A stretch of DNA of 64,000 bases, from NCBI RefSeq assembly GCF_013315695.1, contig NZ_CP054353.1; one strand, 5' to 3'. Shown in pieces: positions 1,540 through 55,630 of this stretch (its first letter is position 1; each line of letters starts with the position of its first letter). This DNA comes from Escherichia coli. Its GTDB lineage: Bacteria; Pseudomonadota; Gammaproteobacteria; Enterobacterales; Enterobacteriaceae. The notes under the pieces were generated by a model. The model was not told where the DNA came from. It ran no database searches and was given only the letters and a program-made list of their open reading frames with translations. A program made the position numbers and the translations under genes.

Positions 1540-3387
1540 GTGTTAAACCGTTATCCTTTGTGGAAGTACGTCATGCTGATCGTGGTGATTGTCATCGGTC
1601 TGCTGTATGCGCTTCCCAACCTGTTTGGTGAGGATCCGGCTGTTCAGATCACTGGTGCGCGCGGAGTCGCCGCCAGTGAGCAAACGCTGATCCAGGTCCA
1701 GAAAACGTTACAAGAAGAAAAAATAACTGCTAAGTCTGTGGCACTGGAAGAGGGCGCTATTCTTGCGCGCTTCGACTCCACTGACACCCAGCTGCGCGCT
1801 CGTGAAGCATTAATGGGCGTTATGGGTGACAAATACGTCGTGGCGCTTAACCTTGCCCCGGCAACGCCGCGCTGGCTGGCAGCTATTCACGCTGAGCCGA
1901 TGAAGCTCGGCCTTGACCTGCGTGGCGGCGTTCACTTCCTGATGGAAGTGGATATGGACACCGCGCTTGGCAAACTCCAGGAACAAAATATCGATAGCCT
2001 GCGCAGCGACCTGCGTGAAAAGGGCATCCCGTATACCACCGTTCGTAAAGAAAACAACTACGGCCTGAGCATCACTTTCCGCGATGCTAAAGCTCGTGAT
2101 GAAGCCATTGCGTATCTGAGCAAGCGCCATCCGGACCTGGTGATTAGCAGCCAGGGCAGCAACCAGCTGCGTGCGGTAATGAGCGATGCTCGTCTGAGTG
2201 AAGCGCGTGAATATGCGGTGCAGCAGAACATTAATATCCTGCGTAACCGTGTAAACCAACTTGGCGTGGCGGAGCCGGTGGTTCAGCGTCAGGGTGCTGA
2301 CCGTATCGTTGTTGAACTGCCAGGTATTCAGGACACCGCGCGTGCGAAAGAGATTCTGGGTGCGACGGCAACGCTGGAATTCCGTCTGGTAAACACCAAC
2401 GTTGATCAGGCCGCTGCGGCATCCGGCCGCGTACCGGGCGACTCTGAAGTGAAACAGACCCGCGAAGGTCAGCCGGTTGTGCTGTACAAACGCGTAATTC
2501 TGACCGGTGACCATATCACCGACTCCACTTCCAGCCAGGACGAATACAACCAGCCGCAGGTTAACATTTCGCTCGACAGCGCAGGTGGCAACATTATGTC
2601 TAACTTCACCAAGGACAACATCGGCAAACCGATGGCGACCCTGTTTGTGGAGTACAAAGACAGCGGCAAGAAAGATGCTAACGGTCGTGCGGTTCTGGTG
2701 AAACAGGAAGAGGTGATTAACATCGCTAACATCCAGTCTCGTCTGGGTAACAGCTTCCGTATCACCGGTATTAACAACCCGAACGAAGCCCGTCAGCTTT
2801 CACTTTTGCTGCGTGCCGGTGCGTTGATCGCGCCAATTCAGATTGTTGAAGAACGTACCATTGGCCCGACTCTGGGTATGCAGAACATTGAACAGGGGCT
2901 GGAGGCTTGCCTTGCCGGTCTGCTGGTTTCTATTCTGTTTATGATCATCTTCTATAAGAAGTTTGGTCTGATTGCGACCAGTGCTTTGATTGCCAACTTG
3001 ATCTTGATCGTCGGCATTATGTCGCTGTTGCCAGGCGCAACGCTGAGTATGCCAGGTATCGCGGGTATCGTCTTAACCCTTGCGGTAGCGGTCGACGCGA
3101 ACGTACTGATCAACGAACGTATTAAAGAAGAGTTGAGCAACGGACGTACTGTTCAACAGGCAATTGATGAAGGTTATCGTGGCGCATTCAGTTCCATCTT
3201 CGATGCGAACATCACCACGCTGATTAAAGTCATCATCCTGTACGCAGTGGGTACCGGGGCAATTAAAGGGTTCGCGATTACTACCGGTATCGGTGTGGCG
3301 ACGTCGATGTTTACCGCGATTGTCGGTACGCGTGCCATCGTAAACCTGCTATATGGCGGCAAGCGCGTCAAGAAGCTGTCAATCTGA
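1540..3387 (+). CDS. secD: protein translocase subunit SecD
   Basis: 615-aa ORF, GTG start, SecD sequence and position. Confidence 0.95.
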
Positions 3388-4507: not shown

Positions 4508-4520
4508 ATGGAGATCGCTT

Positions 4521-4763
4521 ATGCGCAAAATTACCTCAGTAAGCGTTGGCGAACAATTAGATAGTTTTATTACCCGGATGGTCCAGTCTGGTCGTTATGG
4601 CTCGGCCAGTGAAGTGATGCGTTCAGCGCTTCGTCTATTGGAACAACAAGAATCCCGGGATGAAGCTGTCAGAAATGCAGTTATTGAAGGTCTTGAGAGC
4701 GGTGAAAGTTCGATGACGCTTCGTGATATCGCAGCAGAAAGGAAGCAAAAACATCGTGTATAA
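4521..4763 (+). CDS. type II antitoxin, ParD/ribbon-helix-helix family
   Basis: 80-aa product with RHH-like N-terminus and ...SASEVMRSALRLLEQQE... motif; stop overlaps the downstream toxin start by 8 nt. Confidence 0.8.
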   Translation: MRKITSVSVGEQLDSFITRMVQSGRYGSASEVMRSALRLLEQQESRDEAVRNAVIEGLESGESSMTLRDIAAERKQKHRV

Positions 4764-5037
4764 GCTTAGCGGAAAAGCTGTTGAAGATTTCAGAGGGATC
4801 TATGACTACACGCTGGGAAAGTTTGGTGAGGAGCAGGCGGATCGCTATACCGACTCTCTCGGCATTTTTTTGGATACACTCTCTCAAATGCCCGAGATTG
4901 GTCAAGACTATGATGCGATTCCAGAGGTAAAGAAGATCGCATTTAGGTTTCACACTGTTTATTACGTTATAAGAGTCGATGACATTCTCATTGCGCGCAT
5001 TCTTCATCAGCTGATGGAACCTCGCCGTCACTGGTAA
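4756..5037 (+). CDS. type II toxin, ParE/RelE family
   Basis: 93-aa product (GTG start) with ParE-like features: YKLSGKA...DF..IYDYT N-terminus, YYVIRVDDILIARILH C-terminus; start overlaps the antitoxin stop. Confidence 0.8.
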   Translation: MYKLSGKAVEDFRGIYDYTLGKFGEEQADRYTDSLGIFLDTLSQMPEIGQDYDAIPEVKKIAFRFHTVYYVIRVDDILIARILHQLMEPRRHW

Positions 5038-6692: not shown

Positions 6693-7099
6693 TTACTGCA
6701 TAACAGGTTGAATGTCGTGGATACGTACAAAGTCTAACTGTTCTACAGAAATCCCCTTTAACTGTAACGGAATATCAACATCGCTGGGGACGAGGACGCT
6801 GGCAGGGGCATTAATCAATTGATTCTGCAAATTGATTTCCTGAAAGTTGTCTATTGTTCCCTGAATTTGCCCATATTCAACAGTTCCGCTGAATGCGGGC
6901 AAGGGGTCATTCGACTCGCCCTGAATACGTAGCGTCAGGGTGGTGCCATCTGTATCATGCGTAATATTCACTAGCGACATACGTAAAGTACCGATCTGGC
7001 TTTCCAGTCTTGCCGGTGTTTTCGCTCCAGGCAGAAGGTAAACCCCACTGCTGGATTTTGCATTCAGCCTGTTTTGCTGAGTGATTTTGACGGTTTCTT
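6693..7099 (-). pseudogene. yajI: yajI lipoprotein gene, 3' (C-terminal) fragment separated from its 5' part by an IS insertion
   Basis: reading frame open from about 7127 to stop at 6693 (about 135 codons); no start or signal peptide; matching N-terminal piece found at 8851..8979. Confidence 0.75.
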
Positions 7100-7118
7100 T
7101 ATCCGGTGCGCCGTAAAA

Positions 7119-7138
7119 CCCCGTCCTTCAGGGCGGGG
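7119..7138 (+). repeat. left-end subterminal hairpin ccccg-tccttcaggg-cgggg
   Basis: 5-bp stem with 10-nt loop; same orientation and same loop as the right-end hairpin. Confidence 0.7.
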
Positions 7139-7159
7139 ATATAAGGCGCGGTTTTCCAC

Positions 7160-7590
7160 CTGACCAGGTGTTTGCTGTTGTTCAATGTATTGGCGGATGA
7201 CGGATATTGGCGCACCTCCGCAGCTACTGGCAAAATAGCCAGGACTCCACAAAACGCCTTTGTAGTAATACCTGACTGCAATATCTGGTCGATCTCGTCG
7301 CAGTCACCTACCCGATACGCCTTTGAGGCTGTTTACCAGACTGGATATCGCCAGTTTGGGAGGATAGTTAATTAACAAATGGACGTGATCTGGTTCGCCA
7401 TCCATTTCAACCAGTTCAGCTTCAAAATCAGCACATACATTTGAATAGTAAGTGCGTAGTTTTTCTGTCGCGTCATGGTCAAAAATCTGGCGTCGGTATT
7501 TGGGACAAAGACCAGGTGAACATGCATCAGGAAAACACAATGCCTTCCACGCCGGATATCGGTTTCTTTTTTCACAGACCAAAGTATCAT
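7160..7590 (-). pseudogene. tnpA: IS200/IS605 Y1 (HUH) transposase tnpA, inactivated by a frameshift and an in-frame TGA
   Basis: frame A gives ...HVHLVFVP, frame B gives CPKYRRQIF...DHVHLLINYPPK...LKGVSGR then TGA at 7304-7306, then WSPGYFASSCGGAPISVIRQYIEQQ in the same frame. Confidence 0.8.
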
Positions 7591-7597
7591 TTGACCT

Positions 7598-8806
7598 GTG
7601 AAACGATTACAGGCATTTAAATTCCAGTTAAGACCAGGTGGTCAACAGGAGTGTGAAATGAGGCGCTTCGCAGGCGCATGTCGTTTCGTTTTCAATCGTG
7701 CTCTGGCGCTTCAGAATGAGAATCATGAGGCCGGTAATAAATACATCCCTTACGGGAAAATGGCTTCCTGGCTGGTTGAGTGGAAAAACGCCACTGAAAT
7801 GCAATGGCTTAAAGATTCGCCCTCACAGCCATTGCAACAGTCACTGAAAGACCTTGAGCGGGCTTACAAAAACTTCTTCCAGAAGCGGGCTGCTTTTCCC
7901 CGATTCAAAAAGCGGGGACAGAATGATGCATTCCGCTACCCGCAGGGCGTTAAGCTCGATCAGGAAAACAGCCGTATTTTTCTGCCGAAACTTGGCTGGA
8001 TGCGCTACCGGAACAGCCGTCAGGTCACGGGTGTTGTGAAAAATGTCACTGTCAGCCAGTCCTGCGGTAAGTGGTACATCAGTATTCAGACAGAAAGTGA
8101 AGTATCCACTCCGGTTCACCCTTCAGCATCAATGGTCGGGCTGGATGCTGGCGTGGCTAAACTCGCCACGCTGTCAGATGGCACAGTCTTTGAGCCTGTA
8201 AACAGTTTTCAGAAAAACCAGAAGACGCTGGCGAGACTTCAGCGACAGTTAAGCCGCAAGGTCGAATTCAGCAATAACTGGCAGAAGCAGAAACGCAAAA
8301 TACAGCGACTGCATTCCCGTATCGCAAATATCCGCAGGGACTACCTTCACAAAGTCACAACGACCGTCAGCAAAAACCACGCAATGATAGTCATTGAGGA
8401 TTTGAAGGTCAGCAACATGTCAAAGTCAGCAGCGGGTACGGTCAGCCAGCCGGGGCGCAATGTCCGGGCAAAATCAGGTTTAAACCGTTCGATACTGGAT
8501 CAGGGCTGGTATGAAATGCGCCGCCAGCTTGAGTACAAGCAGCTCTGGCGTGGCGGTCAGGTGCTTGCTGTTCCGCCAGCGTACACAAGCCAGCGTTGCG
8601 CGTGCTGTGGTCATACAGCGAAAGAAAATCGCCTGTCACAAAGTAAATTCAGATGCCAGGCATGTGGATATACAGCGAACGCTGATGTAAATGGCGCTCG
8701 TAACATTTTAGCGGCGGGGCACGCCGTTCTTGCCTGTGGAGGGATGGTGCAGTCAGGCCGCCCGTTGAAGCAGGAACCCACCGAAATGATTCAGGCGACA
8801 GCCTGA
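7598..8806 (+). CDS. tnpB: IS605-family TnpB (OrfB), RuvC-like RNA-guided endonuclease family
   Basis: 402-aa ORF, GTG start; N-terminus resembles the ISDra2 TnpB N-terminus as I recall it; RuvC motifs [22 protein letters not shown] and CxxC...CxxC zinc finger all present. Confidence 0.92.
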
Positions 8807-8870
8807 ACGTAGCAGGGATCCACGTCCTTCAGGGCGTGGAGGATGTCAATGAGTTGCGTCATCTCCTGGT
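8650..8870 (+). ncRNA. predicted TnpB guide RNA (omega/right-end RNA) spanning the tnpB 3' end, the right-end hairpin and a flank-derived guide; not directly observed
   Basis: inferred from the known architecture of TnpB elements; right-end hairpin at 8820-8839 and intact tnpB upstream. Confidence 0.35.
8820..8839 (+). repeat. right-end subterminal hairpin ccacg-tccttcaggg-cgtgg
   Basis: 5-bp stem with 10-nt loop, 14 bp downstream of the tnpB stop. Confidence 0.7.
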
Positions 8871-8979
8871 TCAGTGTGCTGACGCTGTGTTTCATCTGCC
8901 GCACTTCGCTTTGCTGCACACAGGCGCTAAGGCTGAACAGGCTTCCCAGCAGGAGCAGTCGAAAAACGTTAGTATTCAT
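8851..8979 (-). pseudogene. yajI: yajI lipoprotein gene, 5' (N-terminal) fragment with signal peptide and lipobox
   Basis: ATG at 8979 then MNTNVFRLLLLGSLFSLSAC (lipobox LSAC); frame runs into the IS right end. Confidence 0.75.
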
Positions 8980-9582: not shown

Positions 9583-10686
9583 GTGCAGGACGAGTATTAC
9601 ATGGCGCGGGCGCTAAAGCTGGCGCAACGAGGACGTTTTACCACGCATCCCAACCCGAATGTCGGGTGCGTCATTGTCAAAGATGGCGAAACTGTCGGTG
9701 AAGGTTACCATCAACGAGCGGGTGAACCGCATGCCGAGGTACACGCGTTGCGCATGGCCGGCGAAAAAGCCAAAGGCGCAACGGCGTATGTCACACTCGA
9801 ACCCTGTAGCCATCATGGTCGTACGCCACCGTGTTGTGATGCATTAATTGCTGCGGGCGTGGCGCGCGTGGTTGCTGCAATGCAAGACCCCAATCCGCAG
9901 GTCGCTGGGCGTGGACTTTACCGTCTACAACAGGCTGGTATTGACGTCAGCCACGGGTTGATGATGAGTGAAGCCGAGCAATTGAATAAAGGCTTTCTCA
10001 AGCGGATGCGCACCGGCTTTCCTTATATTCAGTTAAAACTTGGCGCATCGCTTGATGGCCGCACGGCGATGGCGAGCGGCGAAAGCCAGTGGATCACTTC
10101 GCCTCAGGCGCGGCGCGACGTACAACGACTGCGCGCACAAAGTCATGCCATTTTAACCAGCAGCGCCACGGTGCTGGCGGATGATCCAGCCTTAACAGTG
10201 CGTTGGTCTGAACTGGATGAACAAACTCAGGCGCTCTATCCGCAACAAAATCTCCGTCAGCCGATACGTATTGTGATTGATAGCCAAAATCGCGTGACGC
10301 CGGAACATCGCATTGTGCAGCAGCCCGGCGAAACTTGGTTCGCGCGTACTCAGGATGATTCTCGTGAGTGGCCGGAAACGGTGCGTACCTTGCTGATTCC
10401 AGAGCATAAAGGTCATCTGGATCTGGTTGTACTGATGATGCAACTGGGTAAACAGCAAATTAACAGCATCTGGGTGGAAGCGGGGCCAACGCTCGCTGGC
10501 GCATTGCTACAGGCGGGGTTAGTCGATGAGCTGATTGTCTATATCGCACCTAAACTATTAGGCAGCGACGCCCGTGGATTATGCTCGCTGCCAGGGCTTG
10601 AGAAATTAGCCGACGCCCCCCAATTTAAATTCAAAGAGATACGTCATGTAGGCCCGGATGTTTGCCTGCATTTAGTGGGTGCATGA
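9583..10686 (+). CDS. ribD: bifunctional riboflavin biosynthesis deaminase/reductase RibD
   Basis: 367-aa ORF, GTG start, deaminase motif HAEVHAL...[13 protein letters not shown]. Confidence 0.95.
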
Positions 10687-10774
10687 TCTCCCGGCTCGAA
10701 AGGGAAGCAGAGCACGAAATATTATGCTAAAATCCGCCCCCCTGCGGGGCCATACTCGAACCCGAAGGAAGAAA

Positions 10775-11245
10775 ATGAACATTATTGAAGCTAACGTTGC
10801 TACCCCGGACGCTCGCGTCGCCATCACCATCGCGCGTTTCAACAACTTTATCAATGACAGCCTGCTGGAAGGTGCAATTGACGCACTGAAACGTATCGGT
10901 CAGGTAAAAGATGAAAACATTACCGTTGTTTGGGTGCCTGGTGCCTATGAGCTGCCGCTGGCGGCGGGTGCACTGGCTAAAACCGGTAAATACGACGCGG
11001 TGATTGCGCTGGGTACGGTTATTCGTGGTGGCACTGCCCACTTTGAATATGTCGCTGGTGGTGCAAGCAACGGCCTGGCGCATGTTGCCCAGGACAGCGA
11101 AATTCCGGTTGCTTTTGGTGTTCTGACCACTGAAAGCATTGAACAAGCGATCGAACGTGCTGGCACCAAAGCTGGCAACAAAGGTGCAGAAGCTGCACTG
11201 ACCGCGCTTGAAATGATTAATGTATTGAAAGCCATCAAGGCCTGA
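10775..11245 (+). CDS. ribE: 6,7-dimethyl-8-ribityllumazine synthase
   Basis: 156-aa product starting [17 protein letters not shown]; also known as ribH. Confidence 0.93.
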
Positions 11246-36974: not shown

Positions 36975-37005
36975 TTAACCATTCCCATACAATTAGTTAA
37001 CCAAA

Positions 37006-37040
37006 AAGGGGGGATTTTATCTCCCCTTTAATTTTTCCTC
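37006..37040 (+). terminator. candidate terminator after clpX
   Basis: gggggga / tctcccc stem followed by T-rich tract. Confidence 0.45.
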
Positions 37041-37049
37041 TATTCTCGG

Positions 37050-37080
37050 CGTTGAATGTGGGGGAAACATCCCCATATAC
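37050..37080 (+). promoter_or_regulatory. sigma-32 heat-shock promoter of lon
   Basis: TTGAAT at 37052-37057, 13-nt spacer, CCCCATAT at 37071-37078; matches the sigma-32 consensus. Confidence 0.65.
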
Positions 37081-37161
37081 TGACGTACATGTTAATAGAT
37101 GGCGTGAAGCACAGTCGTGTCATCTGATTACCTGGCGGAAATTAAACTAAGAGAGAGCTCT

Positions 37162-55516: not shown

Positions 55517-55630
55517 GGGGGCTCTGTTGGTTCTCCCGCAACGCTACTCTGTTTACCAGGTCAGGTCCGGAAGGAAGCAGCCAAGGCAGATGACGCGTGT
55601 GCCGGGATGTAGCTGGCAGGGCCCCCACCC
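55517..55630 (+). ncRNA. ffs: 4.5S RNA (signal recognition particle RNA)
   Basis: 114-nt sequence GGGGGCUCUGUUGGUUCUCCCGCAACGC...GGCAGGGCCCCCACCC recognised as E. coli 4.5S RNA, including the conserved domain IV motif. Confidence 0.95.

Follow-up and report, generated by a model that had tools for sequence, protein, structure and literature searches.

An IS609 copy with a tnpA pseudogene and an intact tnpB interrupts yajI in an Escherichia coli chromosome

In a 64,000-nucleotide stretch of Escherichia coli DNA, which we call the window, a copy of the IS200/IS605-family element IS609 spans positions 7103-8849 (1747 bp) and interrupts the lipoprotein gene yajI. We consider it very probable that this is an ordinary copy of the element, non-autonomous because its tnpA is dead, with an intact tnpB; the parts of this reading that concern an ωRNA, nuclease activity and mobilization in trans are carried over from relatives. 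The combination of a dead tnpA and an intact tnpB in IS609 is already known and annotated, as yncK and insQ in K-12 and by a RefSeq pseudogene flag, and the window adds nothing categorically new. The proper label is IS609 (non-autonomous; tnpA pseudogene, insQ/tnpB intact) interrupting yajI, as in the RefSeq annotation of related genomes. Our survey of other copies is a modest population-level illustration of an idea already in print, that of an IS200/IS605 transposase that decays repeatedly and a nuclease gene that persists under some constraint; E. coli could therefore serve as a convenient natural system for studying the function of TnpB after the transposase has gone.

The element and its insertion site in yajI

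The chromosomal gene order around the element, yajD - tsx - yajI - nrdR - ribD, matches that of K-12. We set the boundaries by aligning the K-12 empty yajI region, which leaves 7103-8849 as the unmatched block, and both ends of this block agree base for base with the K-12 mobile_genetic_element feature 'insertion sequence:IS609' (1748 bp), which contains yncK and insQ. This end-to-end match therefore identifies the block as an IS609 copy, and in alignment it is 98-99% identical to other copies. The features of the site and of the two ends are as follows.

7103..8849, plus strand: IS609 element, from the K-12 empty-site alignment and the K-12 IS609 annotation
7098..7102, plus strand: TTTAT target/TAM, in the flank directly 5' of the left end and outside the element
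6693..7102, minus strand: yajI 3' fragment (C-terminal part of the lipoprotein), 96.8% identical to K-12 yajI
8850..8979, minus strand: yajI 5' fragment (N-terminal signal and lipobox), 98.3% identical to K-12
7119..7138, plus strand: left-end subterminal hairpin CCCCGTCC-TTCA-GGGCGGGG (DNA fold z=-2.4)
8820..8839, plus strand: right-end subterminal hairpin CCACGTCC-TTCA-GGGCGTGG (DNA fold z=-2.5; pattern search)

The unoccupied yajI allele reads ...TTTCTTTAT|TGAGTTGCG..., with the junction TTTAT|TGAGTT, and from this empty allele it follows that IS609 inserted without duplicating its target. The same kind of 5' flank, YTTAT, precedes the left end at all seven independent loci that we recovered (TTTAT at five, CTTAT at two), namely yajI, ydcL-ydcO, gltX-yfeD, ybcM-yedK, yeaR-yeaQ, yfaY-yfaV and a tetR-like gene near ytfB. 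The element thus bears the hallmarks of the IS200/IS605 family: imperfect subterminal hairpins at both the left end (LE) and the right end (RE) with no terminal inverted repeats, insertion 3' of the pentanucleotide YTTAT with no target-site duplication, and near-identity over its full length (98.2%) to the K-12 reference IS609. The two hairpins lie on the same strand and share the core GTCCTTCAGGGCG, which occurs twice in the window; a search with this core matched the two ends only, and there is no second IS609 copy within the 64 kb. The element terminates in ...GTCAA at position 8849. On either side of it the interrupted gene is still recognizable: the 3' fragment contains an ORF at 6693-6980 that syntenic genomes annotate as a partial SadB/YajI lipoprotein, and they annotate the 5' fragment as a partial DUF3251 protein.

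Elsewhere in the window, a ParD antitoxin/ParE (RelE family) toxin pair lies at 4520-5037 on the plus strand, between secF and yajD, where K-12 has just a short intergenic gap and strains AF3 and IAI39 are annotated as in the window. The sraA sRNA (36995-37090, minus strand) and the SRP (4.5S) RNA (55525-55621, plus strand) score above their Rfam gathering thresholds and are ordinary chromosomal features.

A decayed transposase gene beside an intact nuclease gene

The two genes of the element are divergent, with start codons 7 bp apart.

7160..7590, minus strand: tnpA pseudogene (Y1 HUH transposase), from Pfam Y1_Tnp and comparison with the intact O157 copy
Between 7503 and 7504, minus strand: 1-bp deletion that shifts the tnpA frame at codon 30 (alignment column 415)
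7304..7306, minus strand: Leu96 changed from TTA to TGA (plus-strand C at 7305, A in O157)
7160..7162, minus strand: stop-loss, TAG to CAG at the natural tnpA stop (plus-strand G at 7162, A in O157)
7598..8806, plus strand: tnpB (insQ), a single intact 402-codon ORF with a GTG start

The stitched frames of tnpA match Pfam Y1_Tnp (PF01797, E=8.7e-37), and both the HVH of 'DHVHLL' and the Tyr of 'IRQYIEQQ' that characterize a Y1 HUH transposase can still be read in the pseudogene. A first-pass annotation, made from the letters of the sequence, had described this transposase as readable only across two frames and interrupted by an in-frame TGA at 7304-7306. Three-frame translation of the minus strand bears out both statements: the first frame gives MILWSVKKETDIRRGRHCVFLMHVHLVFVP, and the next gives CPKYRRQIFDHD...DHVHLLINYPPK...LKGVSGR, followed by the in-frame TGA (TCA on the plus strand) and then LRRDRPDIAVRYYYKGVLWSPGYFASSCGGAPISVIRQYIEQQ. 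As a reference for the lesions we used the intact IS609 tnpA of O157:H7 (WP_000604943.1, 143 aa), in which the TGA position is Leu96. At the deletion site the intact gene has GTC ACC AGA TAC and the window has GTC-CCAAATAC (GTC-CCAAA). The two-frame split was thus read correctly, but the 'CPKYRRQIF' of that reading is not native, since the intact protein has VFVTRYRRQIF; likewise, comparison with an intact family member places the frameshift and the TGA and adds a third lesion that had been missed, the stop-loss at 7160-7162. PGAP labels the syntenic tnpA 'frameshifted; internal stop', and the Leu96 TGA allele is shared with K-12 yncK. With its frame shifted at codon 30, Leu96 replaced by TGA and the stop lost, tnpA is a pseudogene, and the copy therefore cannot excise or transpose unaided. 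Autonomous transposition, the remaining property of a complete family member, is thus missing, and the window copy is a non-autonomous derivative, as the first-pass annotation had proposed for an element without TnpA supplied in trans; the three lesions, the intact hairpins and the intact tnpB with its catalytic residues all support that description, as does the immobility of the K-12 IS609 with which it shares the TGA.

Single-base deletions can in general come from long-read errors, and one might ask whether the frameshift and the stop are sequencing or assembly errors in a tnpA that is truly intact. Nothing specific to this assembly points that way, and the identical alleles recur in hundreds to thousands of independent complete assemblies, including those of IAI39 and K-12, so we take the lesions to be real alleles, reject the error explanation and leave it a vanishingly small chance.

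Recoding would be another route to a full-length protein. On the minus strand, GTC CCA AAT ACC (7498-7506) fits the slippery pattern X_XXY_YYZ, and a -1 slip at C_CCA_AAT would restore the TAC CGA CGC frame and give ...VFVPNYRRQIF...; combined with readthrough of the UGA, which is followed by C, this could yield traces of full-length TnpA. In E. coli, a UGA with C as the next base terminates weakly, and slippage is poor with AAU in the A site. The scheme requires two independent low-efficiency events to occur together, the downstream TGA still lies in the path of any shifted ribosome, and tnpA is free of detectable purifying selection, with pN/pS above 1, as set out below. Moreover, the K-12 IS609, which carries the same TGA alone, gained no further insertions in the mutation-accumulation lines of a large study (PMC5009759). 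We therefore regard programmed recoding as extremely improbable. It takes both the 1-bp deletion and a neighboring G to A change to form the heptamer, whose in-frame position is probably a coincidence.

The adjacent 1.2-kb tnpB had been described as free of lesions, and it is indeed an uninterrupted ORF of 402 codons. Its product has the full domain set expected of a TnpB (HTH/WED-REC, RuvC and a zinc-ribbon TNB domain), with OrfB_IS605 (PF01385), Cas12f1-like TNB (PF07282) and HTH_OrfB_IS605 (PF12323) all above their cut-offs, and it matches ISDra2 TnpB (8BF8/8EXA) with E=1.1e-53. D183, E267 and D363 align with the DVG, E-H/D-L and D-E-N positions of ISDra2 TnpB, leaving the RuvC triad intact, and Cys334, Cys337, Cys353 and Cys356 preserve the CxxC...CxxC zinc finger. 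Judged by these residues, the window TnpB looks catalytically competent. A simple σ70 promoter scan returned no match upstream of tnpB or tnpA and is uninformative, and our literature searches for IS609, insQ and ydcM found no functional study of IS609 TnpB.

Alleles and selection across E. coli IS609 copies

We counted alleles in 5426 complete E. coli genomes using short allele-specific queries in which each 28-nt seed word spans the variant.

TGA at codon 96 (41-nt allele query): 3371 places in 2726 genomes
TTA (sense) at codon 96: 4481 places in 2532 genomes
Frameshift at codon 30: 300 places in 213 genomes
Natural TAG stop: 1742 places in 1560 genomes

At most about 1742 of the roughly 10,500-11,000 IS609 places in E. 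coli thus keep the natural tnpA stop codon. The yajI site is occupied by IS609 in 342 genomes, empty with TTTAT in 1894 and empty with TTGAT, the K-12 form, in 2032. The pentanucleotide at the insertion point is therefore polymorphic, TTTAT and TTGAT corresponding to a Gln/Lys codon difference in yajI, and for the window TnpB a TTGAT site would have a mutated TAM.

We also retrieved 21 IS609 copies from the seven loci, picked by tnpA allele. A fully intact tnpA is present in two of them, and the independent knock-outs comprise L96*, Y76*, loss of the start codon (M1I), the codon-30 deletion and the stop-loss. At ydcL-ydcO the state of tnpA differs between strains (L96*, Y76*, or stop-loss only), and at yajI it is either the frameshift with L96* or Y76*. 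Considering the ydcL-ydcO and ybcM-yedK copies together, the same locus carries different knock-outs depending on the strain (L96*, Y76*, M1I, stop-loss only), which indicates that the IS609 transposase has been inactivated repeatedly and independently, or that copies have exchanged alleles. The window copy itself looks like a mosaic: its left third, 7103-7765 (the first 662 columns), is identical to the gltX-yfeD copy of MS 21-1 and differs at 8-9 sites from the yajI copies of other strains. This suggests gene conversion between copies, and because copies recombine, lesions common to several loci may stem from gene conversion as well as from mobilization in trans.

Of the 21 copies, 18 have an intact tnpB. 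The three broken ones are HL15, where IS66 has inserted (retrieved segment from 2308 onward), Trh52 with Q315* (2120-3328) and Z226 with frameshifts (Z226-1, 2120-3329). The last two belong to the sister locus gltX-yfeD; the Z226-1 copy is 97.1% identical and rich in indels, and its tnpB frameshifts may be sequencing errors. At ydcL-ydcO, all six fully recovered copies keep the 402-codon tnpB, and the seventh is the IS66-cut HL15 copy.

Selection was measured by counting segregating sites over 19 copies, which replaced a pairwise dN/dS on five copies that was too thin.

tnpB, all 19 copies: 34 synonymous and 50 non-synonymous changes, pN/pS 0.42 (P=1.4e-4 vs neutrality)
tnpA, all 19 copies: 4 synonymous and 20 non-synonymous changes, pN/pS about 1.5 (not significant)
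tnpB, TGA carriers: pN/pS 0.48 (P=0.006)
tnpB, frameshift carriers: pN/pS 0.60 (P=0.08, not significant)

tnpB is under moderate purifying selection, and it is still constrained among copies that share the TGA, whose divergence probably post-dates the death of tnpA. By the same segregating-site counts, no purifying selection on tnpA is seen in TGA carriers (2 synonymous vs 12 non-synonymous changes) or in frameshift carriers (1 vs 7). The first-pass annotation had suggested that tnpB persists because of its own function, and had proposed a substitution-ratio comparison across copies. That comparison now gives the overall value of 0.42, which stands on the side of the suggestion; on the other side are the non-significant value in frameshift carriers and the loss of tnpB in three of 21 copies, and we consider retention for its own function weakly supported. 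The constraint agrees equally well with the selfish role known for TnpB and its ωRNA and with a host function.

If the element is immobile, it is also conceivable that both genes simply drift and that tnpA happened to be hit first. The yajI copies, which share a locus, differ from one another by only about 1%, so few disrupting hits would be expected in 1.2 kb; a tnpB ratio that is not significantly below 1 in frameshift carriers agrees with such a lag, as do the tnpB pseudogenes at gltX-yfeD and the IS66 insertion in HL15. Across copies, however, this explanation is disfavored. The ratios for tnpB and tnpA over the 19 copies lie on opposite sides of 1, and tnpB is 2.8 times as long as tnpA, yet shows one nonsense change among 84 point changes against four knock-outs among 24 in tnpA (Fisher p=0.008), a comparison in which the tnpA knock-outs are biased upward because copies were picked by tnpA allele. 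In addition, ydcL-ydcO carries three tnpA states, yet its fully recovered copies have all kept tnpB. For the window copy taken singly, we regard a neutral lag as possible, if rather doubtful.

Predicted ωRNA, proposed mechanism and relation to known systems

Our preferred reading, an ordinary IS609 copy that has lost its transposase, comes with a mechanism modeled largely on relatives, in which two further features have a part.

8679..8849, plus strand: predicted ωRNA scaffold, which overlaps with the 3' end of tnpB and with the right end (sub-threshold Rfam matches, fold)
8850..8865, plus strand: predicted 16-nt ωRNA guide template TGAGTTGCGTCATCTC, in the yajI flank directly 3' of the right end

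At gathering thresholds, Rfam finds no ωRNA family in the whole window, only sraA and the SRP RNA. At relaxed thresholds, HgcC matches 8739-8862 (E=0.008, 23.8 bits against a gathering score of 50), and sot0042 (8679-8840) and RAGATH-18 give weak matches below their gathering thresholds. Together these weak matches cover 8679-8862 on the plus strand, and the last letters of the HgcC alignment are GGAGGAUGUCAA, exactly at the transposon boundary. The RNA fold of the candidate region is modest (z=-2.25). HgcC and sot0042 are archaeal RNAs that originate from the 3' ends of tnpB genes, and the sub-threshold matches to them would be consistent with an ωRNA, short of proving one. The 16 nt that follow the right end, joined to TTTAT, reconstitute the empty yajI site of 1894 genomes, and we infer their role as a guide from the mechanism of the family.

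IS609 is a 'peel-and-paste' single-strand transposon, and this copy of it entered yajI 3' of TTTAT. According to the model, transcription across the 3' end of tnpB and the right end would yield an ωRNA carrying a guide copied from the yajI flank; TnpB would bind this ωRNA, and the complex would cleave empty yajI sites flanked by TTTAT, biasing retention of the element. Meers et al. (bioRxiv 10.1101/2023.03.14.532601) report that TnpB cuts the donor joint adjoining the TAM, that GstTnpB2 has a TTTAT TAM and is sensitive to mutations in it, and that tnpA lies nearby for only about 25% of tnpB genes. Because the LE and RE hairpins are intact, TnpA from an autonomous IS609 elsewhere could mobilize the window copy, and we infer such mobilization in trans on that basis.

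We speculate that, after the loss of TnpA, TnpB and its ωRNA might be kept as an 'allele drive' independent of transposition, which would protect and spread the occupied yajI allele by cutting TTTAT-flanked empty alleles (1894 of the 5426 genomes) as they arrive by recombination or horizontal transfer. We think this unlikely. If it were true, the recurrent tnpA knock-outs and the TTGAT yajI allele found in 2032 genomes could be side effects of the resulting conflict.

A still less likely possibility is that the host has domesticated tnpB as an RNA-guided regulator or defense nuclease, with a function unrelated to the transposon. IS609 does sit at fixed loci in thousands of genomes with tnpB mostly intact and under some constraint, and domesticated relatives of TnpB, the TldRs, are documented (bioRxiv 10.1101/2023.11.30.569447). 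But the constraint is weak and some strains have lost tnpB, and the predicted guide is flank sequence that differs at each locus, so TnpB has no common target. The transposon ends and hairpins are preserved and, unlike in the nuclease-dead TldRs, the RuvC triad is intact; on these two grounds we reject a domesticated nuclease-dead TnpB outright and judge domestication in general very unlikely.

The closest relatives of the window copy are other IS609 copies. The K-12 copy (the yncK pseudogene and insQ/ydcM, between ydcL and ydcO) is 98.2% identical over 1747/1748 bp and shares the ends, the TTTAT flank, the Leu96 TGA, the tnpA stop-loss and an intact InsQ of 402 aa; it differs in locus, the window copy has the codon-30 deletion of 1 bp in addition, and the two TnpB proteins differ at 11 amino acids. 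The autonomous O157:H7 copy, in the tetR-like gene near ytfB, is 98.0% identical, with the same divergent arrangement of tnpA and tnpB and the same LE and RE hairpins, but its tnpA is intact at 143 aa whereas that of the window has the frameshift, the TGA and the stop-loss.

Farther away, IS608 of Helicobacter pylori and ISDra2 of Deinococcus radiodurans share with the window element a Y1 HUH TnpA (E ~1e-17 to 1e-19 to PDB 2A6M/2VHG and 2XM3), subterminal hairpins and insertion 3' of a short motif with no target duplication. The right end finishes in TCAA, like that of IS608, and the window TnpB matches ISDra2 TnpB with E=1e-53. The target/TAM differs among the three (YTTAT for IS609, TTAC for IS608, TTGAT for ISDra2), and the window element is set apart from the other two by divergent genes with 7 bp between their start codons and by its dead tnpA. 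The TldRs resemble it in being TnpB homologs that keep a fixed place in the chromosome with no functional transposase, but the inactivated RuvC site and lost transposon ends that define them are not found here, and with RuvC residues and ends intact and a predicted guide that is locus-specific flank, the window copy bears no sign of exaptation. Finally, the tnpB-only elements of the IS200/IS605 family (IS1341-type; the ISGst families of Meers et al. 2023) also combine a tnpB, an ωRNA (predicted in our case) and both ends, and like the window copy they have no working tnpA and are presumed to be mobilized in trans. In contrast to them, the window copy retains a tnpA remnant of nearly full length, which marks it as a recently decayed autonomous element.
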